From NCBI GenBank assembly GCA_050747045.1, contig JBOGNC010000001.1:1-60729 (forward strand): DNA of 60,729 bases. Reading direction: 5' to 3'. Numbering within the stretch: position 1 is the stretch's first letter; each line of letters starts with the position of its first letter. Positions 22,952 to 60,642 of this stretch are shown in pieces. The translations under genes were made by a program, and so were the position numbers. This DNA comes from Candidatus Acidiferrales bacterium. GTDB lineage: Bacteria; Acidobacteriota; Terriglobia; Acidiferrales; UBA7541. The notes below the pieces were generated by a model. That model did not search any database and was not told the DNA's origin. It worked only from the letters and a program-made list of their open reading frames with translations.

Positions 22952-23000
22952 GTTGGTGGACGTGGCCGGGATCGAACCGGCGACCCCCTGCTTGCAAAGC
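22952..23000. repeat. 49-bp direct repeat: duplicated 3' half of tRNA-Ala (att site shared by elements A and B)
   Basis: Identical to 60565-60613 (gttggtggacgtggccgggatcgaaccggcgaccccctgcttgcaaagc). This covers tRNA nt 30-76 plus 2 nt, and identity stops on both sides. Confidence 0.95.
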
Positions 23001-32438: not shown

Positions 32439-32573
32439 TGAACACACCCCTTCTCTGCCCTAACTAAGAGAGTTAGGCGGATTGGCTGTTCCTTTCCGAA
32501 GCAAAGCCATGCCGATGCTGTTGGGAATGACTACAGCGAGATGGTGAACAAGATACGACGAGCGTCGCCGTCT

Positions 32574-32589
32574 TGGCACAATGTGTGCA
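32574..32589 (+). promoter_or_regulatory. sigma54-type -24/-12 promoter-like element
   Basis: TGGCACaatgtGTGCA matches the consensus TGGCAC-N5-TTGCA in 10 of 11 specified positions (6+4 excluding the mismatched T). It lies in non-coding DNA between dnaN and an IS remnant. Confidence 0.25.
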
Positions 32590-35089: not shown

Positions 35090-35287
35090 TCATTCCGCTT
35101 GCAATCGAGCCGATTCCACCCGCAATTCCTCGGGAGGGACTTCAACGATTCTGCCGTCACGCCAGATGTAAATTGGCAGCCCTTGCCGGGCGTGTTCCAC
35201 TATCACTTTCTCGACAGCAGCTTTGAGCGCGATCTCGGCGCGCTCTTCCAGTGGAAGTTCAAGGACGTTCGCTGGCGGCTTTGTCAT
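35090..35287 (-). CDS. small protein coupled to the zeta-like kinase (possible antitoxin)
   Basis: 65 aa with a 4-bp overlap with the upstream P-loop gene. No family recognised. Confidence 0.4.
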   Translation of the reverse strand: MTKPPANVLELPLEERAEIALKAAVEKVIVEHARQGLPIYIWRDGRIVEVPPEELRVESARLQAE

Positions 35288-44047: not shown

Positions 44048-45838
44048 TTACGCCACTGTGGACACAGCGGCCTGATCGTGTTTCATGCTCCCACGGAGGC
44101 TAAGAAATGTCACACCTGCCGGCACGAGCGATGGCAGTGCTTCTTCACTTGTTGCAAGCACGATAGCTTGGTCGATATCGCTGTGCGACAGTAAAGCAGT
44201 AAGCAGCTTGCGCCTCTCCTTGTCCAATACATCGGCCCGATCAATAACGACGAATCGAATTCCTGTGGCCGTTGCCAGAGCCAGTTGGAATGCGATGCTG
44301 AATCTAAACCGCTCAGATTCCGAGACCTGCTTCAAAGAGAACCCAGAATGATCGTCCGGCGACGAGATGACGCGGATTTCGAATGGATCGAGCGTGAAAT
44401 TGCAGGCGTAACCGAAAGCCGCCAGGCGCATGTTCAAGCTCTCGGCGAATGATCCGATCCGATCGCTTGCTTGCGCCATCATGGCGCCATTCGGCCCGAA
44501 GAATTCAACGAACCTGTCCAGTAGGCCGATCCTTGCCTCTAAGCTCGACTTCTCTCTGGCTTGTGTCTCCCACTTCTCTTGTAGGGCTGGGACCTGCTGG
44601 GCTTTTTCCAGCACACGGTCCCCCTTGTTGATCCTTTCCACGAGGATGGTCATTCGGCTTTCGAGATCCGAAGCATCTGGTTTCTGTACTTCCTGAACCT
44701 TGGATTGTTCTTCTATCAGCTTTGCGCGCCGGGCGAGAGCTCTGCGGTGAGCGTCGAGACGGCACGTTGCCGCCTCTGGGTCGCCGTACTCGTTGAGCTC
44801 CTCCCGCGTTCCTTGAATCAGGCCCTCAAGGTCTGCGAGCCGCTCGCTCAGTGTCTCTATCTCTTTCGATTTCGCCGCTGGCGAGATCGGCTGCCCGCAC
44901 GTGAGGCACTTGTCCTTTAATCCCTGGGCGGCCGCTAGAGCCTTCTCAACGATCCTTTGTTCGGCGGTCAGGTCGGTCAACTCCTGTCGCAGTTTTTCTG
45001 CGTGGGCTCGCTGCGATTCCTGTTGAAGCAGCCCTTGCTCTTCGCTCGGGCTCAGGATATCGGCTGAAGCCTCCCCGATCTCCGCTTGCACTTGCTTTAA
45101 TCGGGCCTGTGCATTCTGCCAACAGGCATCTGTCTCCGCCTTCTGTGCGATGAGTCGCTCCTTCTGTTGCCGTAACTCTTCCAGCTTCTTTCGCACATCC
45201 GCTACACCCGGGAGATCCGGTGGAACTTCGGGCTTTTGCATTAGGCCAAGGGCCTTTAGTGCACGGTTGGCTTCTGTGCGCAAGTCGTAGAAGCGCTGAT
45301 GCGCAGCTTCGACATCAGCAACGCTTCCTAGTTTTGGCAGCTCCTCATTGATGGCGCGCAGCGCATCGCCGATTTCTTTCGGGATATCAATCCTTCCGGC
45401 CTCGACCAACTGGGCCAAGAACCTCTGCTGCTCCGCTTCCGGCATCTCGACGAAGCGGTCGGCGTTCAGTACTGCAGACAACACGTCGGCGGAACCAAAC
45501 TGCTTGGTTAGGAACGTCTCTGCGTTATCGACCGGCACTCGCTTTCCATTGATCTCAACGATCTGTGATCTTTGTGTACGCCGCCGGCAGATCATTTCCG
45601 CGCTCGCCAGTGTTGCTGAGACCTCAAGCTCTTTTTCGCCGGAGCGAATCAGGGACTCAGCTCCCCGGCCGGCGGCATCCGTCAGTTCGCATCGCCCGGT
45701 GAACAAGAATTCCAAGGCCATCTGGATAGAGCTTTTGCCGCAGCCGTTTGGCCCTCGTATGAAGTTGAATCGGTCTAGCTCCAGCACCGTTTCCTGGTGA
45801 GACCGAAAGTTCTTCAAGGTAAGCGTCTGAATTCTCAT
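44048..45838 (-). CDS. Rad50/SbcC/SMC-like ATPase with central CxxC zinc-hook-like motif
   Basis: 596 aa. It starts MRIQTLTLKNFRSH with Walker A GPNGCGKSS. A long heptad-rich central region has CLTC at residues 311-314 (about 44897-44908). The C-terminal signature-like VSESERFRF and Walker B FVVID are followed by R. Confidence 0.8.
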   Translation of the reverse strand: MRIQTLTLKNFRSHQETVLELDRFNFIRGPNGCGKSSIQMALEFLFTGRCELTDAAGRGAESLIRSGEKELEVSATLASAEMICRRRTQRSQIVEINGKRVPVDNAETFLTKQFGSADVLSAVLNADRFVEMPEAEQQRFLAQLVEAGRIDIPKEIGDALRAINEELPKLGSVADVEAAHQRFYDLRTEANRALKALGLMQKPEVPPDLPGVADVRKKLEELRQQKERLIAQKAETDACWQNAQARLKQVQAEIGEASADILSPSEEQGLLQQESQRAHAEKLRQELTDLTAEQRIVEKALAAAQGLKDKCLTCGQPISPAAKSKEIETLSERLADLEGLIQGTREELNEYGDPEAATCRLDAHRRALARRAKLIEEQSKVQEVQKPDASDLESRMTILVERINKGDRVLEKAQQVPALQEKWETQAREKSSLEARIGLLDRFVEFFGPNGAMMAQASDRIGSFAESLNMRLAAFGYACNFTLDPFEIRVISSPDDHSGFSLKQVSESERFRFSIAFQLALATATGIRFVVIDRADVLDKERRKLLTALLSHSDIDQAIVLATSEEALPSLVPAGVTFLSLRGSMKHDQAAVSTVA

Positions 45839-47013
45839 GATCTGTGCTCCTTTCTCCCGTTCGTCGCCCGCCCGATCCTGAGTTCGGTTTCAACATGCAA
45901 ATCCACCACCCCTGTCAACCTCTGAGCCAGCTCAGCACGTTTCTCTGCCTTGAGGGCGGAAGAGAGGCCCGAAATCGTTAACTTGTCTCGCAGCGCCCGC
46001 TCTTCGGGGCGTGCTTGGAACCATTCGTCAAGGATCGAAGCAGCATCGCGGAATGGATAGAATTCCTTCTCCACCGGGACGAAATCAGCCACGTACTCAC
46101 ACTGGTTCCCGTCGCGATAGCAAATCAGCCCGCGTTCCACCATGACGTCCTTGAGAACTTTCGTATTCTGCTTTTCGGCTTCTTGGAGCCAGAGGGCAAA
46201 GCGGAGCCTTTGTTCAGGAGTCAATTGCGAGTAGGGATTTGTCTGCGCCACTGGGCAGTCGTTCAGGAGAAGCGGGCACCAAGTGCAGTGCCTCCCCGGA
46301 GAAACCTTAAGATCGCCCTCCCCGCAGACGGCGAATTCATGAAGTTTTCTTTGACGGCATCGTTCTCTTTGCGCGAGGTCCTTGAGCCAGGGCAAGTCTT
46401 TCTGCGTGTACTCGACGCAACGCGAAGCCCCGTAGCGAACGAACTCCAAGACGAATTTCACGCGCTCCAATGACGGGTTGAGGCACATCAGCAAGAGGGG
46501 ATAGAACTTTGATTGGAACGTGTCCGCATCGATGATTTGGTAGTAGCTCTTCCAATCATCGATCTCGGCTTCCGTGAGCGAATGCAGCATGACGAGATCG
46601 AGGGTCCCCTCGTATTCGGGTGTTTGCCCATCATCCAAATCCGCGAGTGGTTGGAAGTCCTGATCGAGCGCAATATGGAGCTCGGTCGCGAGGATCCTCT
46701 CTGGGTCGAAGGCGTGGTTGTTGCGAAACTTTTCCAAAACTTCCTGTGCCGCGGTGCCAGCTCCCTTCGTCAGCGCGTCAAATGCTTCGAGGTCGGTTGA
46801 ACGCTTGGCCCTAACCAAGTGGTTGATGTAGCTCGCCAATATCTGATGAATTTCGATCCCTCGGGCCGCAGGCTCAGAGTCAGCGACCTTCGCGCGCTGA
46901 ACGTGCTTCCGAACGTATAGGGTTTCGCAGGCCATGTCGCCGTGTCTCGATTGGCTCAACGGCGGGATCTGGTTCGAATGTTCCGAACGCGGCGATTCCG
47001 CAAGTGTTTTCAT
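45835..47013 (-). CDS. Cas4/RecB-family PD-(D/E)XK nuclease with Fe-S cysteine set
   Basis: 392 aa with motifs GTLDLV, EIDDWKS (DxK) and QSKFY (QxxxY). There is one N-terminal Cys (MACETLY) plus C-terminal CTWCPLLLNDC. ATGA overlap with the downstream ATPase gene. Confidence 0.75.
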   Translation of the reverse strand: MKTLAESPRSEHSNQIPPLSQSRHGDMACETLYVRKHVQRAKVADSEPAARGIEIHQILASYINHLVRAKRSTDLEAFDALTKGAGTAAQEVLEKFRNNHAFDPERILATELHIALDQDFQPLADLDDGQTPEYEGTLDLVMLHSLTEAEIDDWKSYYQIIDADTFQSKFYPLLLMCLNPSLERVKFVLEFVRYGASRCVEYTQKDLPWLKDLAQRERCRQRKLHEFAVCGEGDLKVSPGRHCTWCPLLLNDCPVAQTNPYSQLTPEQRLRFALWLQEAEKQNTKVLKDVMVERGLICYRDGNQCEYVADFVPVEKEFYPFRDAASILDEWFQARPEERALRDKLTISGLSSALKAEKRAELAQRLTGVVDLHVETELRIGRATNGRKEHRS

Positions 47014-47106
47014 GGTGCACCTCAGCTAGGGTGGGAACAGAGGAAACTGCATTTCTCTGACCGGATTATTTAGAGAGTTGGGTTAGAGGAGCCGAAAGCA
47101 GGCAGG

Positions 47107-47547
47107 TCAGCGTAATTCAGCCATTGCCAGCGGAGAGACGACAGTCGCATTGAGGAGGTCTTGCGGGAAATCAGTTGGGTTCAAAGTTATGACGAGGTTC
47201 GCCTTTCCTTGCTCGGCACAGAGGCAGAACGGATCGTCCTTGGGGTCAGGTGAGATTTCCATCGAGGAGCGCACCTTGACCTCTTCGGACCGTTCTCGAA
47301 TTAGATTAACGACTTTTCCGATCAGGCTTGAGCGGACCCGAAGTCGCTTCAGGACTTCCTTGTATTCATCCAAGATGTCTTCGCTAATAAGCCAGACAAA
47401 GTGGTTCTTCTCCGCCCATCTGTGGAGTACGTCAGCGCTCGCATTTCGACCTGGAGCAAAAGGCTGCCGAAACCCCGAAATGCCGGCCACAAGCACGCTG
47501 GTGTCAATCACCACACGCGGCTTGCGGCTCTTAGCTTTCTGCGGCAA
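47107..47547 (-). CDS. PIN-domain toxin (TIGR00305-like)
   Basis: 146 aa with RVVIDTSVLVAG, SEDILDEYKEVL, DPKDDPFCLCAEQGKANLVITLN. Overlaps the upstream HTH gene by 17 bp. Confidence 0.8.
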   Translation of the reverse strand: MPQKAKSRKPRVVIDTSVLVAGISGFRQPFAPGRNASADVLHRWAEKNHFVWLISEDILDEYKEVLKRLRVRSSLIGKVVNLIRERSEEVKVRSSMEISPDPKDDPFCLCAEQGKANLVITLNPTDFPQDLLNATVVSPLAMAELR

Positions 47548-48079
47548 CGGTGATCTCCGGTGCCCGTCTCTCTTTACGATAGCTACGCACCGCGCGCAAG
47601 ATTTCCTCTTCGGAAACCTCGCCGATGTCCTTCGCTGCTTCGGTTAGCGATTCAAGAAATTCCTTTTTCCACCCTCGGCGCTTCCTGCCGCGTGGCAGGT
47701 CCCTGTAGAGAGTAGCCCTGCTCATTCCCTCTTCAACCTGCCCCTCTAACGCTCGAAAGGGCACTCCGAGCTTTAATGGTTCCTCGTCTGTCGTGAGCCG
47801 AAAACAGAAAACAACGTACGTCGGATTCTCTACCCTGAGCTTCTCTTCCGACGCGCTGAACGCGTCCATCAACTTCGAAAGCACGCTCGTGCGCGTTCCG
47901 AGCGACTCCTTCAGATAGAAGGCAACCTTCGCCGCCAGCAGCGTGCTCGGGTCGAAATAGTACGTTCCTTCTGACCTTTTCGGCTTCACAACGCCGAATT
48001 GGACGAGGTTTTGCAGTTCCTTCGGCTCAACCTGGAGGACGGCGCTCGCTTGCTTAAGCTTAAGCATTCGCTCGGTCAT
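47531..48079 (-). CDS. HTH (MerR/excisionase-like) protein, putative cognate antitoxin
   Basis: 182 aa with the N-terminus LKLKQASAVLQVEPKELQNLVQFGVVKP. It is genetically coupled to the PIN gene. Confidence 0.5.
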   Translation of the reverse strand: MTERMLKLKQASAVLQVEPKELQNLVQFGVVKPKRSEGTYYFDPSTLLAAKVAFYLKESLGTRTSVLSKLMDAFSASEEKLRVENPTYVVFCFRLTTDEEPLKLGVPFRALEGQVEEGMSRATLYRDLPRGRKRRGWKKEFLESLTEAAKDIGEVSEEEILRAVRSYRKERRAPEITVAAES

Positions 48080-48101
48080 GGTAGCTCCAATTACTATCTA
48101 A

Positions 48102-48138
48102 ATGTTAGACCATATTAGATTGTGCGTCAAGGACGCAC
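48102..48138 (-). promoter_or_regulatory. sigma70-like promoter with the -35 embedded in a 7-3-7 palindrome
   Basis: Minus-strand reading gives TTGACG (48125-48130), 17 nt, then TAACAT (48102-48107). The palindrome gtgcgtc-aag-gacgcac is at 48122-48138, 23 to 59 nt upstream of the HTH-PIN pair. Confidence 0.3.
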
Positions 48139-48161
48139 CATGCAAGCCACCCCCCTGGTAT

Positions 48162-49403
48162 TCAAAAGAGGAATCCTCCGCCGACTGACGATGCGCTACC
48201 TGGCACTACTGCGGTCGGACGGTTCGAAGGGCTGGCTTCACAAGCTTCTCCATTCGCCTGCCGTCCGTGGCGGTTATCGCTGTTGTCGGCTGGCATGCTC
48301 GGCTTCTCGTCCAGTTCATTTAGGAGGCTTCGCTCGAGCCCAGCTAGGTCCCCGGCTGATTGGCCGAGCAGCATCTTCGTCTTGGCTTCGTTGTAGCCAA
48401 GGCGGCGGGCCAGATCACAAATCCTGGCGAGTTGCTCCCCCGTCTCACTCGGGCCATTATCGGGTGCCGGGAACTCCGCGGCGATGTTTTCGCTGCTCGG
48501 ATAGAACTCGCCCGCAATCTCCTTGGCGCGGTCTCCATCTGGCTCATGTACGACATATTGAACTCCACGAGACAGCTCAATGGCCGGGCGGCCCTCGCTC
48601 AAGAGCCTCGCGGGTTCGGTCATATTTGCAACCAAAGTGCGCAGGTCCGTCGCTCCAATCTCCAGGCTGAGAATGTAAGCGACAGACGTGTGCCTGATTC
48701 CATCGTGGTCGGAATATGAGATTTTCTCCGGGCTGGCTTTCAGGATCGCTTTGATCCCGCTCAAGGTTCCGCCATTCAACCGCCTAATCTGCATCAAGCC
48801 ATTTGACAAATTCCGAATTGACCGGTAGCTGCTTGTGTGTAGCCGGCAGATGGCGCCAAAAGTCGGGAATTTCTCTAGGATAAAGTAGAGATCGCCTGAA
48901 GGTTTGCAATCACCGCGCTCCAGGTCCGGGCAACCATCGCCGCAGGGCTCAACCGACTGGCCCTTCTTTGGCCCGTCGACGTACTTGTAATTACCGGGCC
49001 AGGGCTCCCCCTCGGGGTGGTTTTGCGTTCGCCGACTCGCCTGCATTTCGAACCGAACGCCGTTGCCATTGGCGATCTGCACAAGCTCGCCGTGGCACTT
49101 GCACCCAGCGGGCACCCACCACGCGTATTCAGTTCGCAACACTTCGCGGGGATCATCATTGAGGAAGATGATTCCCAGTTCGGTCGGTTTCTCGCCATGT
49201 GCTTTCGATATGTCCGGCGCTGGCTCCCAAACGACGTCTTGTCCGCGAAGTGTTTTCCGCTTGAAAACGAAGTGGTCTAGGCGCCGCGGATGACTGTTTC
49301 CGTTGCCTGGCTCCGGCCCCTCACCGATGGCGACCTTGATTGTCACCGGAAGTTTTTCGAGGGCCGCCCCGCTCTCATCATGTGTTAATCCGAGAATGCC
49401 CAT
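48162..49403 (-). CDS. Cys-rich hypothetical protein
   Basis: 413-aa ORF with good coding appearance. Cys clusters occur at GCKCHGE and EPCGDGCPDLERGDCKP, followed by the conserved-looking stretch HTSSYRSIRNLSNGLMQIRRLNGGTLSGIKAILKA. No family recognised. Confidence 0.55.
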   Translation of the reverse strand: MGILGLTHDESGAALEKLPVTIKVAIGEGPEPGNGNSHPRRLDHFVFKRKTLRGQDVVWEPAPDISKAHGEKPTELGIIFLNDDPREVLRTEYAWWVPAGCKCHGELVQIANGNGVRFEMQASRRTQNHPEGEPWPGNYKYVDGPKKGQSVEPCGDGCPDLERGDCKPSGDLYFILEKFPTFGAICRLHTSSYRSIRNLSNGLMQIRRLNGGTLSGIKAILKASPEKISYSDHDGIRHTSVAYILSLEIGATDLRTLVANMTEPARLLSEGRPAIELSRGVQYVVHEPDGDRAKEIAGEFYPSSENIAAEFPAPDNGPSETGEQLARICDLARRLGYNEAKTKMLLGQSAGDLAGLERSLLNELDEKPSMPADNSDNRHGRQANGEACEASPSNRPTAVVPGSASSVGGGFLF

Positions 49404-49477
49404 TAGACTTCCACCTCCTGTTTTTGATCTGTTTGTCTTGAAAAACTGCTGGTTGATGTGGGAAACCCAAACCAGCT

Positions 49478-51811
49478 TCAGAACAGCGTGAGCTGGCCTG
49501 CGGGAATGCCTTCACGACGTGGAGTCTTGCGAGGAATTGGTTCAAACGGAGTAGCGAGAGCAGGCAACTGGCTGGCTGGCGCGACGGAGGACTCACTTTC
49601 AGCGAGTCCGAGATCTCGGACAAGCTCTGTGGCGGGTTCCGCCTCGGCCGATTTCACCGCGAAGACTTCTTCCTGTTTCTTCTGCAAGGCGCTCCACACG
49701 GCGTCGGCTCGTTCTCCGATTCCTTTCTCGGTCACGAGTTCCCGCGCCATGGCCATGAGAATGTCGTCATCGTCGTTGATGGACTGCAACCCTTCCGATG
49801 CGAACTTCCCCTCCATCGCCAGAGAAACAAGTAGTTTTCTGCCCATCAACCGAAGACATGTCTCTTGCATCGTTCCGGCGTAGTGCAGGAATTTCACCTT
49901 TACGGGAAGCCGCTGGCCGATTCTCCAGCTTCGCCGACTTGCCTGCCTAAGAACGTAAATCGAATATCCAGACTGATAGAAAAGAATCGTTGGGAACTCG
50001 ATCAGATCGAGGCCGGTTTGCACGAGTTTTGGGTGGCAAATGACGGCCTGCACACCGGCACGAACCTGGCGCTCGTACCATCCTTCCCTCGACTCCGGCG
50101 GCACTTCGGTCGTCAGAACCGCAACCCGAATCCCCTCATTTGCCAGAATGTGCTCTAGCCTTCGAGTCACATCCCGCTTCTGCGTGTACACCGCATAGAT
50201 TTGGCAGCGACGGCCGTGGGCGAGCTCTGCTTTCACTTCTTGTACCAGGCGGCACTCCTTGGCGTAGGCGAAGTCTTCGTGCAGGTCCTGTGTCTCGGCG
50301 ATCAGGAATCTCTCTCGTCGCTGGGTTTCCGGGTCGAATTCCCAGCCGTACAAATTCCCGAGATGAAATGGCCGGTCGGGATACAGCAGGAGGGCGTTCA
50401 GCGCAACGCTCATCACTGATTGGTTGCCGCGATGCTCTTTCAGCGCGGTCTTCACGTCCTCTTCAAGCTTCTTGTAGGCTTGCTTCAGAGGAGCATCCAT
50501 CTCTACGCTGAGGACTTCCTCGCGATAAGGCGGCAGCGCCGCTGAAATGTCTTCGAGAGAAATAAACGCCCCAAGGCTCATCAGGAAACGGCCAAAGAGC
50601 AGCGGCGACGCCCCCGGTCGCCTGCGAATGCGCTTTGTGACGCGCGCCTCCGAGCACGCATTGTCGGCTGGCTCAATTACGGTGACCTTTTCGAGCAGAC
50701 CGTACGTCTCGGTGAAGGCCCGTACTCCGGCCTCGCCATACTCAAATCCTTCTTTGACCATCTTTCCGGCTTCGAGGCGGTAGAGAATATTGAAGACCTC
50801 GTCGGCATAGCCACCTAGCAGCGTGCCCGTGAGTACCGCCGTGTGCTGCGCACAAGCAGCCAGCGTCCCGAGTGCATTCCCTTGGGCCGTATCTCCTTTG
50901 AGCTCGTGCACCTCATCGGCGATGGCGTAGTCGAAGAAGTCTGGCATGTACCGGCCGATAAAATCGATGGGAGCAAAACGCCGAGTCTTTTTCCCGTCCG
51001 CTTGCCACAACGCGCTGTACAACGCCCGCCGCAGTTTTGCGGACTCGTCACCGTTCGGTGCGCCTAGAATCTCGCTCAGCTTGGCCTTCTTGAAATCGGC
51101 TGACAGCAATCGCTCGCCATCCTCACCTAAGTAGATCGGACAGCCAGTGTCGGAATTAACGACGCTTCCTTGGTATCGCCCGCATCGGGCATGCCCGTAG
51201 GCATGTCGCCAGAAGTAGCTGAGCTTCCCGCGCTCGCGCCCCACAATGAACACAGCGGGGAATCCGCAGATGGAATCCCACCGCTGGCGGGCCGTGCGAG
51301 CCCCTCTCCGAAGTCGCAACTCGGTCAGAGTAGTGCGCAGCCCTTCCCGCACGATTCGGCCATGGCGCAATCTCACTTCGTTGACTCCCGCATGGCCTGC
51401 AGAACTCGTCGGGGTACGCAGTCCGTCGATGAAGAAAACGCGCACGCGAGGTAAGGTAAGAAATGTTTCTCGAGCCCACTTCTCGACCAACTGCGGTGGA
51501 ACCATGGCCAGGGCGGTAAAGGGCTTGCGGTCGCTGTGCACATGAACAGCGCCCAGCGAGATCAGCGTTTTCCCCGTTCCGCACTCCGCGATCACCGCTG
51601 CGCCGCGTGCCTGATTCCATCGCTTCACCACACCCATGATTGCGAGCGTCTGTGCGGGAAACGGCTTCCGGAGGAGTTGTTCGACCAGCGGTGACGGGGC
51701 ATCCTCAAAGCCGTGCAACGGGGGATAAGTTTGAAGAATTCGCTCACCGAGCTCGGGGGCCCACGCACGGAGATAGGAGGAGATCGAATCGATATCCTTC
51801 GGTAATGGCAT
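49478..51811 (-). CDS. SNF2-family helicase/translocase
   Basis: 777 aa with motif I AECGTGKT, motif II DEVHELKG and motif VI RQASRRSWRIGQ. There is a large (about 200 aa) insertion between motifs Ia and II. Confidence 0.85.
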   Translation of the reverse strand: MPLPKDIDSISSYLRAWAPELGERILQTYPPLHGFEDAPSPLVEQLLRKPFPAQTLAIMGVVKRWNQARGAAVIAECGTGKTLISLGAVHVHSDRKPFTALAMVPPQLVEKWARETFLTLPRVRVFFIDGLRTPTSSAGHAGVNEVRLRHGRIVREGLRTTLTELRLRRGARTARQRWDSICGFPAVFIVGRERGKLSYFWRHAYGHARCGRYQGSVVNSDTGCPIYLGEDGERLLSADFKKAKLSEILGAPNGDESAKLRRALYSALWQADGKKTRRFAPIDFIGRYMPDFFDYAIADEVHELKGDTAQGNALGTLAACAQHTAVLTGTLLGGYADEVFNILYRLEAGKMVKEGFEYGEAGVRAFTETYGLLEKVTVIEPADNACSEARVTKRIRRRPGASPLLFGRFLMSLGAFISLEDISAALPPYREEVLSVEMDAPLKQAYKKLEEDVKTALKEHRGNQSVMSVALNALLLYPDRPFHLGNLYGWEFDPETQRRERFLIAETQDLHEDFAYAKECRLVQEVKAELAHGRRCQIYAVYTQKRDVTRRLEHILANEGIRVAVLTTEVPPESREGWYERQVRAGVQAVICHPKLVQTGLDLIEFPTILFYQSGYSIYVLRQASRRSWRIGQRLPVKVKFLHYAGTMQETCLRLMGRKLLVSLAMEGKFASEGLQSINDDDDILMAMARELVTEKGIGERADAVWSALQKKQEEVFAVKSAEAEPATELVRDLGLAESESSVAPASQLPALATPFEPIPRKTPRREGIPAGQLTLF

Positions 51812-51868
51812 AGTCTTTTCCTCAGGGGGGTTTCAATCGACGCAGAAAAGTAACAGATAGAAAGAGTT

Positions 51869-52360
51869 TCAGGCTGTAGCAGGCGCGAGGGCCGATGCAA
51901 AAACGTCCTTCTGAATTTCGGCAGTGGTTACGTAGATATCGGTGTGCCGTACGAGCGCGGTGAACGCGACGCCGCTATCGCGGGCGATCATCTGGGAGCA
52001 CTCTACAGTTGCAATCTGGCTTTCCGGAACACGAAAATCCGGTGGCGCGGTCACTATCTCTCGCGTGTCAACTTCAAGGTTTTCCAGCATCTCCTCCAAC
52101 TCGACAGTGGACTCCTGAACTTCGCCCGGCGGGCTGGCTCGATTCAGCCAAGGGCTGAAATACTCCGGCGAAGAATCCCAGTAGTACGTCTCGTACGCCG
52201 AAGCATCGGTAGCCTTCTGTTCCCTCAGCACCGCAATTCGCCGTAGCGTGAGCTTCGCAAGTTCCGCGCTGATTTCAACGGCCGCATAATCGCAGCCGCC
52301 GCTGTAATCGGGGTTGCTGCTCCACACTTTCAGAATGACTCGCATCAGCGCCTCCTTCAT
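51869..52360 (-). CDS. hypothetical protein
   Basis: 163-aa ORF, 19 bp downstream of the preceding gene. No family recognised. Confidence 0.45.
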   Translation of the reverse strand: MKEALMRVILKVWSSNPDYSGGCDYAAVEISAELAKLTLRRIAVLREQKATDASAYETYYWDSSPEYFSPWLNRASPPGEVQESTVELEEMLENLEVDTREIVTAPPDFRVPESQIATVECSQMIARDSGVAFTALVRHTDIYVTTAEIQKDVFASALAPATA

Positions 52361-52379
52361 ACGGGACCGCCCAACCGCA

Positions 52380-53081
52380 TCAGGTCTTGTTCGCGGCTTC
52401 GCGTTGCTCCAAATTCAAGCCTTCCAAGAAAGTGCGTGGCGACTTCCAAGAGATCGATCCGTTCTCTCCTGGTATTCGGATGAGATGGTCTCTCAGGGCT
52501 CTGCCAATCCATTTCAGAAACGTCTGCTTATTTCCTTTGACTAGAACGGGCGAGCAGCCAAGCCCGAGCAACGGCGTAATCGCTTTTCGTTGATCGAGTT
52601 CACCCATGAACCACGGCGCCCACTCCGGTACGACCGGAAGACCGTATCGGGACGCGACACGATAGAGCACAAACGTCGGATCGGCGTCACACAGAATCGT
52701 GCGTGCGCCCTCTCGATCCGAGCCCGGTTTCGTCTTGGCTAATTCGGCGGACACCGCCACCAAGTGCCGGACTGGATGCTTTTTGCCCGGAACAACCACG
52801 CTCCCGCGAAAGCATTGGGCTTCGGGCCCTAGAGATGCAGCCATAGGAGCGCAGGCGGGAAGTCGAATCTGGAACAAAGCTACCTCGGTTACCGCCGCCC
52901 ACAGTGCCCCGATTTCCGAGTCGCCGCCGATCATCGAAATTAAATGAGCGTTGATGTGGCCTTGGTCGGCCTTTGTCGGTTCCAGAATGGCTCGGTCAAC
53001 GTACACCCGAACGCGGGTGGTTGTGTCCTTCGTACGCTTCGTGAATTCGAGCGTTCCGAAGCCCTGGTGTGCGTTCTGCAT
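52380..53081 (-). CDS. hypothetical protein
   Basis: 233-aa ORF with no family recognised. Confidence 0.5.
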   Translation of the reverse strand: MQNAHQGFGTLEFTKRTKDTTTRVRVYVDRAILEPTKADQGHINAHLISMIGGDSEIGALWAAVTEVALFQIRLPACAPMAASLGPEAQCFRGSVVVPGKKHPVRHLVAVSAELAKTKPGSDREGARTILCDADPTFVLYRVASRYGLPVVPEWAPWFMGELDQRKAITPLLGLGCSPVLVKGNKQTFLKWIGRALRDHLIRIPGENGSISWKSPRTFLEGLNLEQREAANKT

Positions 53082-53168
53082 GGTTATGATTCTCCTCGGT
53101 GTGACTCATCAAGCGGGTGGCATGAACTGTCGTGAACGAATGCAAGGGCTTGTCGGCGAGAGTATGGC

Positions 53169-53591
53169 TTACGTGAGGAGATGGGGTGCAACTAAACTAA
53201 GAAACTCGCGGGATGTGATGATCTTGGTCCTCTTCCAGTATCGTGGGAAGTGCCGTATGTTTCCCGTAATGAGATAATCCGCGCCGGCAACGTCCGCGCA
53301 CTCTACGAAAATATTGTCGTCCGGGTCGCGCGTGACCTCGAGATGCCGCACTGGAGCCACCGAACGGGCGTTCTTCTCGACAAGCTGCAACAATTGCTGC
53401 TGAAGGCCTTTGCGGATCTGAAATTCTGGCCGCGAAAGCACGGCCCGATATTCTGCGACGATTGGGGCTGAGACGTAGAGCCGGGCTGGTTTGGTGAGCG
53501 CAAGCAGGAGGACCGTGCGTTGTAGTCCTTCGGGCTTCAGGGCGGCAGAGACGACGATATTGGTATCCACGACGAGGCGAAGCGAAATCAT
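53169..53591 (-). CDS. vapC: PIN-domain toxin (TIGR00305-like)
   Basis: 140 aa with LVVDTNIVVSAAL, APIVAEYRAVL, DPDDNIFVECADVAGADYLITGN. 4-bp overlap with the antitoxin gene. Confidence 0.85.
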   Translation of the reverse strand: MISLRLVVDTNIVVSAALKPEGLQRTVLLLALTKPARLYVSAPIVAEYRAVLSRPEFQIRKGLQQQLLQLVEKNARSVAPVRHLEVTRDPDDNIFVECADVAGADYLITGNIRHFPRYWKRTKIITSREFLSLVAPHLLT

Positions 53592-53887
53592 TTGCGCTTC
53601 GTTCGCTTGGCCCGCGTGTCCTTGATGATTTTGTCGATCTGCTGCGAACTCAGCTTGTCCGTGCCCTTTGCCTCGGATTCCTCGCCAAGGACCCTCAGAA
53701 CCTCAGGTTCTGGAGCGGCAAGCCGTACGTAATCTCGGACGCTCAGCAACACCGCGCGCGGCGTGCCGCGCTTTTCGATCACGAGCGAGCGTCGCTCATC
53801 TTCCACGCGCTGTAGAAGATGGCCGAAATTCGTGCGGGCTCGCAGTGCGGAAACCACGATGCTATCGTTCTTCGCAGCTTTTGGCAT
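53588..53887 (-). CDS. Phd/YefM-type antitoxin
   Basis: ARTNFGHLLQRVEDERRSLVIEKRGTPRAVLLSVRDY is a typical Phd/YefM N-terminal domain. The ATG at 53887 is preceded by GGAGAG (the track start is a TTG at 53908). Confidence 0.75.
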   Translation of the reverse strand: MPKAAKNDSIVVSALRARTNFGHLLQRVEDERRSLVIEKRGTPRAVLLSVRDYVRLAAPEPEVLRVLGEESEAKGTDKLSSQQIDKIIKDTRAKRTKRK

Positions 53888-53970
53888 CAGATGAACTCTC
53901 CAGTTCAATTATACGAAGTGGACAGTTAGGTCCGCAAATGATTTTGCCCTCCGGCTGGCACTTGCTGCCG

Positions 53971-54387
53971 CTAAGTAGTTGATGCGCGAATCGCGCTGGT
54001 CGCCTTGGAATACACCGTCCAGTACTGCCGCGCATCATCCACTTCCGCGGGCTGGACAATACCGCCAGGTTCTACGCGCACAGCGGGGAAGTTGCTCTCA
54101 TGCAGGGCTTCGGAGTAATGCCATTCCTGGCCGTCTGAAACAATGAGGTGATCGCCATAAGCACCGGGACACGAGCCATTGCAGACCAAGAAAGGCACGC
54201 TCTTCAGCGCGGTCAGCTCGTCGTAATGTCCGCCGCTGGCTTCATCATCCACCATAACGATGGCAGCCAGGAGTTCATTTCCGTCGACTGACATAGCCCT
54301 TGATTCTTCGACTCTGTAACCCATCCTTTCAAAGGTATCTTTGTCTCGCTCAGCGCAAACGAGTGTTGAGTAACACCGATCACCCAT
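53971..54387 (-). CDS. hypothetical protein
   Basis: 138-aa ORF, 30 bp downstream of the methyltransferase gene. No family recognised. Confidence 0.45.
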   Translation of the reverse strand: MGDRCYSTLVCAERDKDTFERMGYRVEESRAMSVDGNELLAAIVMVDDEASGGHYDELTALKSVPFLVCNGSCPGAYGDHLIVSDGQEWHYSEALHESNFPAVRVEPGGIVQPAEVDDARQYWTVYSKATSAIRASTT

Positions 54388-54417
54388 GGTTTGTCTCCCC
54401 TCTTTGATGGTCCAGTT

Positions 54418-55455
54418 TTACTTCAAGGTGGTGATCTCCCCTGTGCAAAAGACCAGCGTCAGTTCGTTCGAGAACCGTTCTTTCTCTCGAATGACCGTCT
54501 TTCCGTCTTCTTCCTCTTCGGATTTGTCCACCAGCTTGACCGACTGCCAGTGCGCGATGTGGCGCGTCTCGCCTTCGCCGAAAATACCGTTGAGCATTCC
54601 GGCTGTGCAGAGCAACCCAACATGCCCGCCGTGCAAAGGCGTGAGCGGCCGACCGCTGACATCCGACTGAGGAGCGAAAAGAATGGCTGAGGCTTGACGG
54701 TAGGCGGAGGACCTTGGAAGAAGGTCTTCGATTTCGTCCAAGGGCAACCCCCGATAAACCATCCGCACTGCCTCTCCCGGGGGAACCGCATACACGGGGT
54801 CTGGCTCTGTGGGTAAGGGCGAGAGCCTCTCTGGGTCTGCCGCCAGAGACTCGAACCGCATTCGGGCGCGCGTGATTTCGGCATCTTGAACTCGATCCCT
54901 TTCGGCCCGCGTGCGTCGCCCTCCTATCACAATGACCTGCTTATATTTCACGCTCTCGGGTTCCGTGAACCGGTGGACGCGTACGTCGCGGAATTGATGC
55001 GCTAGGATCTGACTGCAATCGTGGAGGTACCGGCCAGGGATAACCATCACTAAGATCCCACTCCGCTTTAGCCAGCGATAAACATGATCGAGGAACAGCC
55101 GTTCCATGCGCTGCGATCTTTCCTCGCCGATCTCGAAGTCGTAAGGAGGGTTCAAATAGATCAGCGAGAACGATTCCACCGGGCACTGCACGTCAAAGCA
55201 GTTGCCGTGAATCACCTCGATATCCTTGTTCCGGGCCTGCTCGGCGCGGCCAGCGTCCAACTCAACGCCATAGCGCAAAACTCCTTTGTCAGAAGTGATT
55301 TGAGCGAACGCTCCACCATCGCCCACACAAGGATCGAGCGCGCAGCACTGTTGGTCCGGGAATGCCAAGAATCTCCGAATCCGCTCCGCCTCTGGCGGTG
55401 GCAACGGATAAAAGCCAAGACGTGTTCGACCGGCAAGACGCACGGCAACCTCCAA
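54418..55455 (-). CDS. N6-adenine DNA methyltransferase (NPPY type), orphan
   Basis: 345 aa with an AdoMet motif LDPCVGDG and the catalytic motif IYLNPPYDFE. No endonuclease partner recognised. The start codon is uncertain (TTG 55455 or GTG 12 nt downstream). Confidence 0.75.
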   Translation of the reverse strand: MEVAVRLAGRTRLGFYPLPPPEAERIRRFLAFPDQQCCALDPCVGDGGAFAQITSDKGVLRYGVELDAGRAEQARNKDIEVIHGNCFDVQCPVESFSLIYLNPPYDFEIGEERSQRMERLFLDHVYRWLKRSGILVMVIPGRYLHDCSQILAHQFRDVRVHRFTEPESVKYKQVIVIGGRRTRAERDRVQDAEITRARMRFESLAADPERLSPLPTEPDPVYAVPPGEAVRMVYRGLPLDEIEDLLPRSSAYRQASAILFAPQSDVSGRPLTPLHGGHVGLLCTAGMLNGIFGEGETRHIAHWQSVKLVDKSEEEEDGKTVIREKERFSNELTLVFCTGEITTLK

Positions 55456-55512
55456 GTACGGGAATTGTGGGGGAGGAGAAAAAGGAGCTATTCGACGAAA
55501 GATCCGTTGCGC

Positions 55513-56574
55513 TTACTCGCCGCACTGCCCATATTCCTTCAGTTTTCGATAGACGGTGGTTTTGCCAATACCCAACAGCCGTGCGGCAGCGATTTTGTCC
55601 CCCTCGGCTACCTCTAGCGCCTTCATGATGGCGCTCCGTTCTAGTTGAGCTAAGCTCTGCGTGTCCGTCGCCGAGCAGTTATTGGCGATCTTTTCGGGGA
55701 TTGGATAACCATCTTCGTTCCTGAGGACCGGCCCCGAACCGAGCGCGATCGAGCGCGCCACGAAGTTCTCTAGTTCACGCACGTTTCCCGGCCAGTTGTA
55801 GGAAGTTACGAATCGCCAAAACTCGTTAGAAATGGTCTCTACGGGCCGCATTGGGTCGGCGTGTCTTTCAAGGAATGCGGCGACGAGGAGCGGGATATCG
55901 GCTTTCCGCTCACGTAGCAGGGGCATCTCGATGGGGATGACATTCAGGCGATAATAGAGGTCGCTCCTAAATCTTCCGGCATCGACAGCATTCCTCAAAT
56001 CGCGATGTGTTGCCGCGATGAATCTAACGTTGACTGGCCGGGCCTGCGCGGAGCCGACCGGCCGGACCTCACGTTCTTGAATTACGCGAAGAAGTTTCGC
56101 CTGCAATTCAGTTGGCAATTCTCCAATCTCGTCCAAGAACAGGCTGCCGGCGGCCTCAACCAGCCCCTTCTTATTTGCATCCGCGCCCGTGAAGGAGCCT
56201 CGCAGATGGCCGAACAATTCGGACTCGATCAGCGTCTGCGTTAAGGATGAGCAATCTACGGCAACAAACGGAGCGTCTCTCCGTAGACCCGAATTGTGAA
56301 TACATCGAGCCACAAGTTCCTTCCCGGTGCCAGTCTCACCGAGAATCAGTACCGGAAAGGGACGGTCCGTTGCCTTGCGGATAAGCTCGTGAACCATCCG
56401 CATCGCCGCGGAAACGCCGATCAGACCTCCCTGGCCAGCCATGGAAGCCAATTGGGCTCGGAGCGCGTGAAGTCCCATATTTTGCGATTGTGGAACTCGG
56501 TAATCCTCAATGGTTTGCGATTCACCTGAACGCGGGAAGGCTTCGGTGAAACAACCTCCACTCGACATAAGCAC
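55513..56574 (-). CDS. sigma54-dependent transcriptional activator (bEBP) lacking a sensory/receiver domain
   Basis: 353 aa. The AAA+ core starts about residue 50 (LIGVSAAMRMV...LILGETGTGKE). It has the GAFTGA-loop variant GSFTGA (56182-56199), FLDEIGEL, and a C-terminal Fis-type HTH (AAARLLGIGKTTVYRKLKEYG). Confidence 0.85.
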   Translation of the reverse strand: MLMSSGGCFTEAFPRSGESQTIEDYRVPQSQNMGLHALRAQLASMAGQGGLIGVSAAMRMVHELIRKATDRPFPVLILGETGTGKELVARCIHNSGLRRDAPFVAVDCSSLTQTLIESELFGHLRGSFTGADANKKGLVEAAGSLFLDEIGELPTELQAKLLRVIQEREVRPVGSAQARPVNVRFIAATHRDLRNAVDAGRFRSDLYYRLNVIPIEMPLLRERKADIPLLVAAFLERHADPMRPVETISNEFWRFVTSYNWPGNVRELENFVARSIALGSGPVLRNEDGYPIPEKIANNCSATDTQSLAQLERSAIMKALEVAEGDKIAAARLLGIGKTTVYRKLKEYGQCGE

Positions 56575-56677: not shown

Positions 56678-58264
56678 TTGGCAAACAGCCAACTCATTGT
56701 TACAGTCCGCCGCGAAATGGACGAGGCGCTGAAGGCCATCGAAGGTTCACAACCGAGTATTGGTGAGCGAACCGTTCTTAAACTGAAACCCAAAGGTGCG
56801 AAAACGGAGTGCCTGTTTGTGGATGGCACGTCCATCTTGCTGTCGAATTTCTTGGCCGGTTTCGTTCGCACCGGCGACGAATTACTTTTTCCTTTGGAGC
56901 TGCAGGCAACCGGCGCCGGCACACAAATCTACATTCGCAAAACAAGTACCCAGGAAAAAAGGAATGACGCACTTCAGGCCGAGATCGGCTACGCGACACA
57001 GCCGAGGAGAGACAAGCGAGGTAATCTGTTCGTTTCCGCTGAGGTGGTCGGTGGTTCTCTGGGGATCTCCGCCATCCACCTGCGTTGCGAGGCGTTGAAG
57101 GATTATTTCTATGTTGGCAATCGTCGGCGCGCGTGGGACCGGCAACCTTCGTTGTACGAACTGCTGCGGGTCAATACCAACGTAGCCCCGGCCGAACTGC
57201 GCCTCGCCTTCAAACTTCGCACGCTCGAACTCCGCGCGGCCCACGCACCAGCCGGCGAACTTCGTGCGCTAGAGCGCGCTTTCAATATCCTGGCGCATCC
57301 AGAACTGCGCGCTTGCTACGACGCCCTCCTGAATGACCCTGCAGCGCCTGCACTCTTTCCGCACAACGGCTTTGGTTCCTTGCTGGTTGCTGGAGATCGC
57401 TCCCGTGACGGCACGACCTTCTACGCTTTCCGCATCCTCTCGTTCTTGCCCGAACAGAAGACGAAGCGCATGCAAGTGCCACTGCGGAAATGCACTTTCT
57501 ACGACGATCGCGCGATCTATCGAGACGCGCAGCGGAAGTGCGAAATCATGTTCGATCAGGCGGCGGTCCCGCTTTCGTGGGATTCCACCTGGAACCAGTG
57601 GAAACATCTGCTCGGCGCGAAGATCGGCATTAAGGCAGCCTTCATCCAGAGCGGGAAATATCGGCGCCGCGGTGAGGCATGGCATTTCGTCCGGTGGGAA
57701 ACTGCGCTGCCGAGCCGCATTGAAGCTACGCTCCCGGTCAACATTGCCGAGCAAATTGGTGAGGCGCGTCACACGCATCATCGCTTCGGTCAATTCGCTG
57801 AAGCCCTCGACAGAATCCGGACGCGCACTGAATCTGCGCCCATCGAAAGAGCTGACCTGCAAAGGCTCTGTGCCGGCTTAGGCATCCCTGGGGATTTCGA
57901 CGTCGCGTTAATCACATGGAAGGCAGACTACGACGCCTTCTATCACAGGCAACTGTGCAAGCGAGCCCGCCGACTCTACGTGTTCCGGTCGGAGTACATC
58001 TTCGACCTTGAGAAGTGGGTCATTGTCGAAATACCGCAGCTCGGCCACGCCACCTATTTATTCTCCAAGCCTGCCAGCATGACCGAGTTCTTGGCTCTCT
58101 ATACGATGGTCACCAGAGAAGACATTCTCCAGAACCGCGGCAACGTGGCCGAGAAGCTCGGCTTCTTGGGTCGAATTATTCATGGCCTCAAACCGCAAGC
58201 GTGGTTGAAGGAACTAAAAGTGCGCCTCGGTGAGGTCGTTGATTATGCCGACATTTCCGAATAG
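56678..58264 (+). CDS. hypothetical protein with a degenerate J-domain-like segment
   Basis: 528 aa. Residues about 157-218 (SLYELLRVNTNVAPAELRLAFKLRTLELRAAHAPAGELRALERAFNILAHPELRACYDALL) look like a DnaJ J-domain but carry HAP in place of HPD. The start may be the ATG at 56717. Confidence 0.55.
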   Translation: MANSQLIVTVRREMDEALKAIEGSQPSIGERTVLKLKPKGAKTECLFVDGTSILLSNFLAGFVRTGDELLFPLELQATGAGTQIYIRKTSTQEKRNDALQAEIGYATQPRRDKRGNLFVSAEVVGGSLGISAIHLRCEALKDYFYVGNRRRAWDRQPSLYELLRVNTNVAPAELRLAFKLRTLELRAAHAPAGELRALERAFNILAHPELRACYDALLNDPAAPALFPHNGFGSLLVAGDRSRDGTTFYAFRILSFLPEQKTKRMQVPLRKCTFYDDRAIYRDAQRKCEIMFDQAAVPLSWDSTWNQWKHLLGAKIGIKAAFIQSGKYRRRGEAWHFVRWETALPSRIEATLPVNIAEQIGEARHTHHRFGQFAEALDRIRTRTESAPIERADLQRLCAGLGIPGDFDVALITWKADYDAFYHRQLCKRARRLYVFRSEYIFDLEKWVIVEIPQLGHATYLFSKPASMTEFLALYTMVTREDILQNRGNVAEKLGFLGRIIHGLKPQAWLKELKVRLGEVVDYADISE

Positions 58265-58982: not shown

Positions 58983-59396
58983 ATGGACAACGGAAGACCG
59001 CCGATTGGAAAGAGACAGGTTGGTGACCCAACCGTCGTCGCCTGCGTGGTATTCCAAACCCGAGATCCCGAGCATCTCTTGGAACTGTTGCGCGAAGCGT
59101 TGACCGGAATCGCTGATCCTTTGCCGGAAACCTCGGCATCCTTACCAACAATTGCTCCACGGAGCGATTCCGATCCGTGGCTAAGGCACCCCGAGGCTGC
59201 GGAATATCTTGGAATAGCAACGAGCACGCTCTACCGATACGCGTGCCAGCAGAGGATTGAATCTCGGAAGCTCTGCGGTCGTCTTGAGTACCGTCGCTCC
59301 GTGTTGGACAAATTCAAAGATTTGCACATCCGCCCGGCCGCCCGATGGCCCTCCCCAAGGCGTATAATTCCTGCGGCGCTCGGCTCCGGCAAGTGA
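58983..59396 (+). CDS. xis: excisionase-family HTH DNA-binding protein
   Basis: The C-terminal part WLRHPEAAEYLGIATSTLYRYACQQRIESRKLCGRLEYRRSVLDKF is a typical excisionase/MerR-like HTH. It lies immediately upstream of int. The start is uncertain. Confidence 0.6.
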   Translation: MDNGRPPIGKRQVGDPTVVACVVFQTRDPEHLLELLREALTGIADPLPETSASLPTIAPRSDSDPWLRHPEAAEYLGIATSTLYRYACQQRIESRKLCGRLEYRRSVLDKFKDLHIRPAARWPSPRRIIPAALGSGK

Positions 59397-59407
59397 GAGG
59401 AGCGTCA

Positions 59408-60564: not shown

Positions 60565-60613
60565 GTTGGTGGACGTGGCCGGGATCGAACCGGCGACCCC
60601 CTGCTTGCAAAGC
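60565..60613. repeat. 49-bp direct repeat within and next to the intact tRNA-Ala (att site)
   Basis: Identical to 22952-23000. Confidence 0.95.
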
Positions 60614-60642
60614 AGGTGCTCTCCCAGCTGAGCTACACGCCC
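60567..60642 (-). tRNA. tRNA-Ala (anticodon UGC), CCA encoded
   Basis: The reverse complement GGGCGTGTAGCTCAGCTGGGAGAGCACCTGCTTTGCAAGCAGGGGGTCGCCGGTTCGATCCCGGCCACGTCCACCA folds as a 76-nt cloverleaf. It has a 7-bp acceptor stem with the G3:U70 Ala identity pair, the anticodon loop TTTGCAA and the T-loop GGTTCGATCC. Confidence 0.95.

Follow-up and report, generated by a model that had tools for sequence, protein, structure and literature searches.

Does a run of 13 closely spaced genes on one strand of a mobile island form a single system, or does it bring several separable parts together? The question is raised by positions 44048-56574 of a 60,729-nucleotide stretch of contig JBOGNC010000001.1 from a Candidatus Acidiferrales bacterium (the window, meaning the whole stretch that was analysed). 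An earlier note on this DNA had read the block as one 13-gene, sigma54-led system in a combination not yet described, and had offered two hypotheses: (a) a new defence system or (b) an early-entry anti-defence and recombination module. The second fits our results better than the first, with the single system giving way to three kinds of gene: a split version of a predicted DarB-type methylase–helicase dyad (module A), a separable trio encoding a Gp3-like protein, a nuclease and a Rad50-like ATPase (module B), and accessory insertions. We put at roughly 0.55 the probability that these genes are the conserved backbone with which a mobile island integrated at a tRNA gene handles DNA, serving establishment through counter-restriction together with DNA-end processing.

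All 13 open reading frames (ORFs) of the block lie on the minus strand, separated by 57, 30, 62, -4, 87, 19, 57, 74, 82, -17, 93 and -4 bp, which confirms the co-directional layout and the gap range of -17 to 93 bp recorded previously. Most of the domain calls made then also held in Pfam: bacterial enhancer-binding protein (bEBP), NPPY methyltransferase (MTase), Phd-PIN, SNF2, helix-turn-helix (HTH)-PIN, Cas4-like and Rad50-like. Three genes rather than four are without a recognizable domain, because the 413-aa protein g9 belongs to Pfam family PF18897. The 138-, 233- and 163-aa proteins (g3, g6 and g7) matched no family in Pfam, PHROGs, NCBIfam or PADLOC, and these three, together with u1 and u2, returned nothing from Pfam at E ≤ 10. 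A scan of the block for promoters and terminators stayed at chance level except for one site upstream of g10.

Table 1 Features of the island and of the 13-gene block, with the number of surveyed loci in the close and distant helicase clades that keep each gene (for g4-g5, antitoxin and toxin are counted separately; for g10-g11, the HTH gene is counted; for g12, presence within 8-10 kb of the helicase gene is counted)
Feature	Position	Strand	Description	Close clade	Distant clade
attL	22952..23000		Exact 49-bp duplicate of the tRNA-Ala 3′ half; left island boundary		
g13	44048..45838	-	Short Rad50/SbcC-like ABC ATPase, CxxC hook; start overlaps g12 end by 4 bp		
g12	45835..47013	-	Cas4-like PD-(D/E)XK nuclease, predicted; 4-Cys (Fe-S type) motif, ~130-aa C-terminal extension	6/16	0/18
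g10-g11	47107..48079	-	MerR-type HTH antitoxin-like protein and PIN_3 toxin, 17-bp overlap; accessory toxin–antitoxin (TA) pair	0/25	0/25
g9	48162..49403	-	413-aa Gp3-like protein (PF18897), conserved cysteines; first gene of module B	23/25	2/25
g8	49478..51811	-	SWI2/SNF2-related superfamily 2 (SF2) helicase/translocase, predicted; helicase half of DarB-like dyad		
g7	51869..52360	-	163 aa, acidic, no known domain; close-clade backbone gene	16/24	3/25
g6	52380..53081	-	233-aa basic protein; obligate partner between MTase and helicase genes in the Acidobacteriota family	22/24	24/25
g4-g5	53169..53908	-	Phd/YefM antitoxin and PIN_3 toxin, 4-bp overlap; accessory TA insertion	Phd 7/24, PIN 8/24	1/25 each
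g3	53971..54387	-	138 aa, acidic, no known domain; close-clade backbone gene	12/24	3/25
g2	54418..55455	-	DUF6094 N6-adenine-type DNA MTase, predicted; motif I DPCVGDG, motif IV NPPY	22/24	24/25
g1	55513..56574	-	AAA+/Fis-type HTH sigma54 enhancer-binding protein; accessory gene, inserted between u1 and MTase gene	2/24	0/25
u1	56678..58264	+	528 aa, divergent from the block, J-domain (DnaJ-like) at ~residues 140-205; outside 44048-56574, same backbone	16/24	7/25
Integrase	59345..60538	+	Island tyrosine integrase (Pfam Phage_integrase, 5.5e-19); abuts tRNA-Ala(TGC)		
attR	60565..60613		49-bp repeat within tRNA-Ala(TGC) (gene 60567-60642, minus strand)		

The block lies at the integrase end of an island with exact borders. 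A 49-bp segment of tRNA-Ala(TGC) is repeated without change at the left boundary, where the chance expectation for a match of that length is 0, and these exact repeats therefore place the block on its own island of ~37.6 kb (23.0-60.6 kb of the window), in tandem with an integrative and conjugative element (ICE). The ICE occupies 7.4-22.9 kb and carries a type IV secretion system (T4SS) with VirB4, VirB9, VirB10, VirB8, a coupling protein and VirB11, together with a RepB primase and an integrase-like gene; its integrase (21565-22929) abuts the internal repeat, attL. The integrases of the ICE and of the island are both of the tyrosine type and are unrelated to each other. The neighbouring ICE may mobilise the island.

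We then compared the block across 79 genome, 80 metagenome and 72 IMG/VR loci. The genome loci were anchored on the helicase gene with one genome per GTDB species, and all are titled Acidobacteriota except three (two Nitrospirae/Nitrospirota and one Dormiibacterota); the metagenome loci were anchored on the nuclease gene, g12. The closest helicase homologues come from Acidobacteriota metagenome-assembled genomes (MAGs) of Acidiferrales, Sulfotelmatobacter and Terriglobales, and homologues number in the thousands in soil metagenomes. For counting, we separated a close clade (helicase at least 75% identical) from a distant one (~60-70% identical) and scored only loci with enough flank, which gives the denominators in Table 1. 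In 46 of the 49 Acidobacteriota-family loci the helicase gene is accompanied by those for the MTase and the 233-aa protein, u1 is kept alongside the block in both clades, and eight of the nine genes outside the TA pairs travel together in related elements, a point in favour of the earlier note's reading. Copies of g3 at 28-34% identity were found in L046, L058 and L066 (loci are numbered with L), the distant copies lying elsewhere within clade-B elements. The distant Acidobacteriota clade keeps the MTase–g6–helicase triad amid other DNA-metabolism genes, among them those for single-stranded-DNA-binding protein (SSB), a Rad52-like protein, archaeo-eukaryotic primase (AEP), ThiF, Sipho_Gp157, an AAA ATPase, another PD-(D/E)XK nuclease, an HD/OB nuclease and DUF3150. 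No homology was found between clade-A-specific and clade-B-specific neighbours.

What surrounds and interrupts these genes varies. Related islands lie beside tRNA-Ser, -Asn, -Ala, -Arg, -Pro or -Gln or beside transfer-messenger RNA (tmRNA), with exchanged integrases and in the order tRNA/tmRNA, integrase, u1 and then the block. Between g9 and g12 the gap ranges from 186 bp to 8.8 kb across the metagenome loci and its content differs in nearly every one, including genes for a DUF4011-helicase-REase, a TonB-type outer-membrane protein, an SMC-like ATPase, a MacB permease, SNF2 and PLD proteins, a glycosyl hydrolase and a disulfide reductase. In the window this hotspot is filled by the HTH-PIN pair g10-g11 (PIN_3 match of g11, 3.8e-15), which has its own promoter-like site of the sigma70 type at 48130-48102 and which we found in one other locus, L094. 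In at least six MAGs the helicase block is present as two or three distinct copies (L017/L020, L015/L065, L034/L066, L039/L047, L044/L054 and L028/L070/L078), as expected if several related islands share one genome. Co-travelling genes, hotspots and swapped integrases and tRNAs therefore identify the block as a mobile-element backbone with insertion hotspots; a homologous helicase also borders a cargo hotspot in the PAPI-1 islands of Pseudomonas (PMC12629846). The two PIN-type TA pairs (for g4-g5, Pfam gives Phd at 2.7e-11 and PIN_3 at 1.3e-20) and a sigma54 activator that lacks a sensor are accessory insertions at backbone junctions acting as hotspots. Three g9/g12 hotspots of related islands, L019:14258-20563, L139:5209-9258 and L016:13706-16600, hold defence-like cargo: a trio of unknown, PLD-domain and SNF2 helicase genes, a DUF4011-helicase-REase (MTES_1575) and a 964-aa SMC-like ATPase.

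The backbone itself divides in two. Module B occurs without an MTase or helicase gene within the flanks in IMG/VR loci L167-L169, and 67 of the 68 IMG/VR loci with a helicase homologue have no Gp3-like match (a single locus has one), so modules A and B are separable. The view of the block as one 13-gene system does not survive this, given that the two modules occur independently with variable cargo between and within them. They are nonetheless often neighbours, with the Gp3-like and helicase genes upstream of the nuclease gene on the same strand in 12 of the 19 metagenome loci with a full 10-kb flank.

For module A, sequence comparison points to a known type of enzyme pair. The MTase g2 matches Pfam DUF6094 (2.9e-32), with NPPY at residues 102-105, and both DPCVGDG and NPPY are invariant in 12 family members; a single PHROG profile, phrog_9133, is matched over the same region by g2 (4.6e-11) and by the MTase domain of phage P1 DarB (3.4e-43). 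These motifs and matches predict an EcoKI/TaqI-like N6-adenine MTase domain, as in DarB-type dyads. The helicase g8 matches SNF2-rel and Helicase_C in Pfam and phrog_62 (2.1e-26), and a profile of its family aligned with DarB residues 813-1229 at a probability of 92.8% (hhalign, E 4e-7), which predicts a SWI2/SNF2 helicase coupled to an MTase in a conserved neighbourhood, the other half of such a dyad. BLAST of g2 and g8 against P1 DarB detected no similarity, and the links stand at the level of profiles and shared PHROGs. Judged by its domains and their order, module A is a split-gene version of a DarB-type dyad of adenine methylase and SWI2/SNF2 translocase.

The combination of MTase and helicase is thus already described, contrary to what had been thought. 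Iyer, Burroughs, Anand, de Souza and Aravind described the pairing of MTase and SWI2/SNF2 proteins in 2017 as a "DNA methylase-helicase dyad", with DarB as its archetype, on phages, plasmids and conjugative transposons (PMC5512222). In their account the dyad can be a single polypeptide or, on plasmids and conjugative transposons, a pair of conserved neighbouring genes, and they proposed that in counter-restriction the methylase depends on the SWI2/SNF2 ATPase to modify transferred DNA (PMC5512222). Module A shares with the DarB dyad an N6-adenine-type MTase followed by a SWI2/SNF2-related SF2 helicase on a mobile element. It differs in encoding MTase and helicase separately, with two small acidic genes interleaved and the family-specific gene for the 233-aa protein always in between, in lacking fusions to other effector domains, and in sitting on an integrative island without a capsid or T4SS of its own.

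Direct homologues of the pair, alike in order and adjacency, extend to pKLC102/PAPI-1-type ICEs and conjugative plasmids. A DUF6094 gene is the immediate upstream neighbour of a helicase homologue on four plasmids from three other phyla, Bacillota and Deinococcota among them, with 26-34% identity for the MTase and 29-40% for the helicase: Pseudomonas aeruginosa pKLC102; Thermoanaerobacterium pMU3262, where the pair is beside genes for ThiF, an ADP-ribosyltransferase and Rad52; Oceanithermus pOCEPR01, where it is near ArdC; and an Alicyclobacillus plasmid (NZ_CP066785.1, L166:9703-11747), where the pair is preceded by a Phd antitoxin gene and followed directly by genes for an AcrIIA9-family anti-CRISPR protein and a PcfJ-domain protein. 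In contrast to the block, pairs of the pKLC102/PAPI-1 type are directly adjacent, without g3, g6, g7 or the Gp3-like/nuclease/ATPase trio. Among the 68 IMG/VR loci with a helicase homologue, a DUF6094-type MTase gene lies upstream in 45 and dnaN is present in 10. Orphan MTases, TA genes and SSBs are over-represented in the leading regions of conjugative elements (PMC11541004).

The protein that sets the Acidobacteriota family apart is g6. Its homologues fall into 655 clusters at 50% identity; among the best 150 relatives listed, all are stand-alone proteins of at most 388 aa and none is a Rosetta-stone fusion. Its AlphaFold2 (AF2) model had no Foldseek match at E ≤ 1e-3 in PDB or BFVD, and profile searches of PDB with g6 and with g9 gave nothing. 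The idea that either protein is a detached piece of DarB was rejected, as hhalign showed no similarity. As an observation apart, g3 and g7 are strongly acidic (pI ~4.5, net charge -12), a property that brings to mind anti-restriction proteins that mimic DNA, but there is no homology to back the comparison.

Putting these elements together, we suggest that when the element enters a cell or is activated, the translocase would move its partner methylase along the element's own DNA, and that the resulting modification would be fast and broad enough to escape host restriction. The 233-aa protein, invariably co-located, would be a third subunit, and g3 and g7 are possible anti-defence accessories. 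Module B would tether and resect DNA ends, with a Cas4-type nuclease holding beside the Rad50/SbcC-like protein the place of Mre11/SbcD, and would process element ends or single-stranded DNA (ssDNA) intermediates for recombination-dependent repair or replication. The comparisons establish the gene content, the co-occurrence, the separate modules, the homology links and the island borders; all biochemical activities in this scheme, and with them the anti-restriction and recombination roles, are ones that we infer.

An unlikely alternative is that the block is mainly a replication module, whose helicase, Gp3-like protein, nuclease and ATPase would act with a dnaN-like clamp and ParB to replicate or maintain the excised element, and in which the MTase would be regulatory (epigenetic) rather than anti-restriction. 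The island does encode a clamp, ParB and DUF932, dnaN accompanies Gp3-like, Rad50-like, DUF6094 and helicase genes on an Alicyclobacillus plasmid (L164/L166), and the primase, SSB and Rad52 genes around the triad in distant relatives would suit such a role. So would the J-domain of u1, seen when its profile was compared with PDB (E 6.5e-6) and the sole recognizable domain of that protein. J-domains are known to recruit DnaK in the initiation of plasmid and phage replication. Set against this, no initiator or origin was identified, the strict coupling of MTase and helicase across phyla argues for a joint DNA-modification activity, and SWI2/SNF2 enzymes are double-stranded-DNA translocases, not replicative helicases (PMC5512222).

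Module B combines a protein with an unexpected family membership with two predicted DNA-end enzymes. Over residues 26-234, g9 matches PF18897, the Gp3-like "recombination directionality factor-like" family, at 6.6e-26 and 91.8 bits against a cut-off of 23.6. The one role characterised for that family is directionality control of serine integrases, by factors of the phiC31 type (PMC5814800). The N-terminal ~230 residues of g9 match the family model well above the cut-off; the differences are that g9 is longer, is linked to nuclease, ATPase or SSB genes, and belongs to an island that uses a tyrosine integrase. A tblastn search of the window with two serine recombinases found nothing (best E 0.05). 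On two Alicyclobacillus plasmids the Gp3-like gene adjoins ssb, with a gene for a ~535-aa CxxC ATPase downstream, and on a Psychrobacter plasmid it adjoins a lambda-exonuclease-family gene and DUF932. By gene context only, these neighbours and the missing serine recombinase suggest a role for the trio in DNA-end or ssDNA recombination.

The other two members are a nuclease and an ATPase that are translationally coupled, as the g12 stop overlaps the g13 start. The nuclease g12 matches Pfam PDDEXK_1 and the phrog_69 exonuclease (5e-12), and its Cas4/AddB-type cysteines C29, C243, C246 and C253 are invariant, as are D139, D153 and K155. The 596-aa g13 matches Pfam SMC_N and the SbcC-like phrog_77 (7e-30), with GPNGCGKS as Walker A and an invariant mid-protein CxxC at C311 and C314. 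In PDB, a profile of the g13 family found both heads of Rad50, N-terminal (~1e-11) and C-terminal (~1e-10), as well as the Rad50 zinc hook (1l8d, E 0.033). Homologues of all three genes are contiguous in L167-L169, at 48-51% identity for g9, 46-47% for g12 and 33-35% for g13, and nearly contiguous in L007, L090 and L141, where g9-to-g12 gaps are 186-341 bp. Of 62 metagenome loci, 32 have g13 immediately after g12, and in many of the others it lies 0.9-4 kb away. On plasmids, g12 had no match and g13 had N-terminal matches only.

The closest described counterpart is Rad50-Mre11/SbcCD, with which g13 shares Rad50-type ABC heads, a coiled coil that contains a central CxxC hook, and a nuclease gene immediately upstream. 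By contrast, the nuclease of the block is a predicted Cas4-like PD-(D/E)XK Fe-S enzyme rather than an Mre11/SbcD phosphoesterase, g13 is short, and a Gp3-like protein is a constant third partner. We could not match this separable nuclease/Rad50-like/Gp3-like set to any described system. A bolder reading, which we hold only tentatively and consider somewhat doubtful, is that the trio is an undescribed, widely mobile DNA-end machine, a Rad50 complex with a Cas4-type nuclease in place of Mre11, in which DNA-end or ssDNA handling would be the ancestral job of Gp3; with a three-subunit split DarB-like methylase-translocase it would form an "establishment kit" of soil Acidobacteriota elements.

Resemblance to Lamassu raises another possibility, that module A serves counter-restriction while g12-g13, with or without g9, form a Lamassu-like defence pair, abortive or sensing DNA ends, in which a Rad50-derived sensor would keep the nuclease effector in check until foreign ends appear. 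Lamassu evolved from SbcCD, and its type I form lacks LmuC (PMC12663957). Both bring together, on mobile elements, an ATPase derived from SMC/Rad50 and a protein that bears a nuclease, and g13 matches the LmuB hidden Markov model over nearly its full length (2.1e-19, 68 bits), a weaker match than to PHROG SbcC-like families (105 bits). Differences are that g12 had no PADLOC match to LmuA at E ≤ 0.01, that no LmuC-like gene lies between the overlapping g12 and g13, and that g13 is closer to Rad50 than to the solved Lamassu proteins and is a backbone gene, not hotspot cargo; the PDB matches of the g13-family profile are Rad50, SMC and GajA, with no Lamassu chain at E ≤ 0.1. In addition, the Gp3-like gene is a constant third partner and on Bacillota plasmids stands beside ssb and an ATPase gene with no nuclease annotated adjacent, and g12-g13 diverge in step with the backbone rather than being swapped like cargo. 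We consider a Lamassu-like pair improbable.

Searches of PADLOC, Pfam and NCBIfam, in which MADS, Lamassu, DISARM, BREX, Zorya and Dpd were considered, found no complete named defence system in the block. That signature components of such systems are missing had been noticed before and stands: PADLOC gave domain-level matches only, to mad2, mad3 and LmuB and weakly to DpdE/ZorD. The likeness to MADS is confined to the domain-level matches of g2 to mad2 (1.4e-19) and of g13 to mad3 (7.6e-17); mad1 (E 8e-3) and mad8 (5.5e-4) were marginal, mad4-mad7 of the eight-gene set had no match, and NCBIfam MAD3 scored 16 bits against a cut-off of 420. For DISARM, BREX, Zorya and Dpd, PADLOC gave only weak matches of the C-terminal helicase part of g8, to DpdE (6.6e-8) and ZorD (1.6e-3), and none to DrmA/DrmB/DrmC, PglZ/PglX/BrxC, ZorAB or DpdA-K as sets. 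Nor does g8 resemble the Res subunit of type III restriction–modification, as it matched SNF2, Helicase_C and ResIII only and no nuclease domain, with no match extending into its C-terminal ~100 residues. A named defence system was accordingly rejected as the identity of the block.

A new modification-dependent defence system, in which the conserved genes would act together, the MTase marking self while helicase, nuclease and ATPase attack unmodified DNA, is the least probable of the readings that we weighed. Its appeal lies in an enzymatic vocabulary that overlaps DISARM, BREX, MADS and Lamassu, in a gene order kept across many close relatives and in the frequency with which mobile islands carry defence. 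However, no signature component of a named system is present, and the MTase/helicase and nuclease/ATPase parts are independent and separated by cargo. The occurrence of the MTase/helicase pair on conjugative plasmids beside ArdC, AcrIIA9, SSB and Rad52 indicates an anti-defence or establishment setting. In the islands the variable hotspots are where defence cargo is found and the block is the invariant backbone, of which one genome can hold several copies.

Several results also weigh against the backbone with establishment and DNA-end-processing roles that we favour. The MTase profile matched DarB residues 93-259 weakly (hhalign, E 2.9e-4, probability 40.6%), and some of the likeness between the helicase and DarB could come from the resemblance of SF2 enzymes in general. 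Positions 1-124 of the DUF6094 profile, its N-terminal part, have no counterpart in g2, and an LPD36-type extension is probably absent because g2 starts at profile position 125. The literature holds no experiment on any DUF6094/helicase pair and none on DUF6094 function. The mechanism of DarB is itself an inferred one. Homology of g3, g6 and g7 to anything characterised is undetectable, and AF2 prediction was moderate for g6 (pLDDT, predicted local distance difference test, 61.7) and failed for g9 (36.9). The nuclease and ATPase genes lie within 8-10 kb of the helicase gene in just 6 of 16 GTDB loci. In g13, the Walker B segment (residues 529-539, FVVIDRAD) has Asp533, invariant in 11 homologues, followed by Arg and not by the usual catalytic Glu, and the ATPase may be slow or use another residue. 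The N-terminal nuclease and ~130-aa C-terminal region of g12 resemble the layout of LmuA, which together with the LmuB match of g13 favours the Lamassu-like pair. Finally, no T4SS, relaxase or oriT was identified among the island ORFs scanned, so that an early-entry or leading-region status is conjectural.

The sigma54 activator proved peripheral. Its gene product matches Sigma54_activat (3e-65) plus HTH_8 in Pfam and has no N-terminal sensor domain; among close loci it occurs in L018 and L062, with a fragment in L094. We searched for TGGCAC-N5-TTGCW with up to two mismatches, and with a relaxed regular expression over all intergenic regions, and found no -24/-12 promoter in any intergenic region of the block. 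Across the window there were 24 sigma54-type matches with up to two mismatches, against 27 expected by chance. Sigma54 control of the block was rejected on both counts, and with it the view that the bEBP leads the block; the activator gene turns up occasionally, inserted between u1 and the gene for the MTase. The sole one-mismatch sigma54-type site in an island intergenic region, TGGCACAATGTGTGCA at 32574-32589 on the plus strand, is 23 kb from the bEBP gene, in a window where the match count is not above chance.

What is new here is the split form of a known DarB-type module, with a separable trio and accessory insertions. The build of a large family of mobile islands in uncultured Acidobacteriota is now visible, and the split dyad with its obligate third protein offers a tractable case for the idea of SWI2/SNF2-driven DarB-type counter-restriction. 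Its repeated linkage to genes for nucleases, Rad50-like proteins and SSB suggests that the Gp3 family has a further function. The locus also carries a caution, in that genes lined up neatly on one strand of an island need not be a single system and may be a backbone with other genes inserted at its hotspots.

The rest of the island carries genes for ParB, DUF932, a DNA polymerase III beta-like clamp, a zeta toxin and, as metabolic cargo, LysR, an alcohol dehydrogenase (ADH) and an aldehyde dehydrogenase (ALDH). The sliding-clamp gene (31323-32447, minus strand) adjoins the DUF932 gene (30416-31150, minus strand). The zeta-toxin-family gene (35284-35892, minus strand) is the third toxin-type gene of the island, besides the two PIN toxins of the block.

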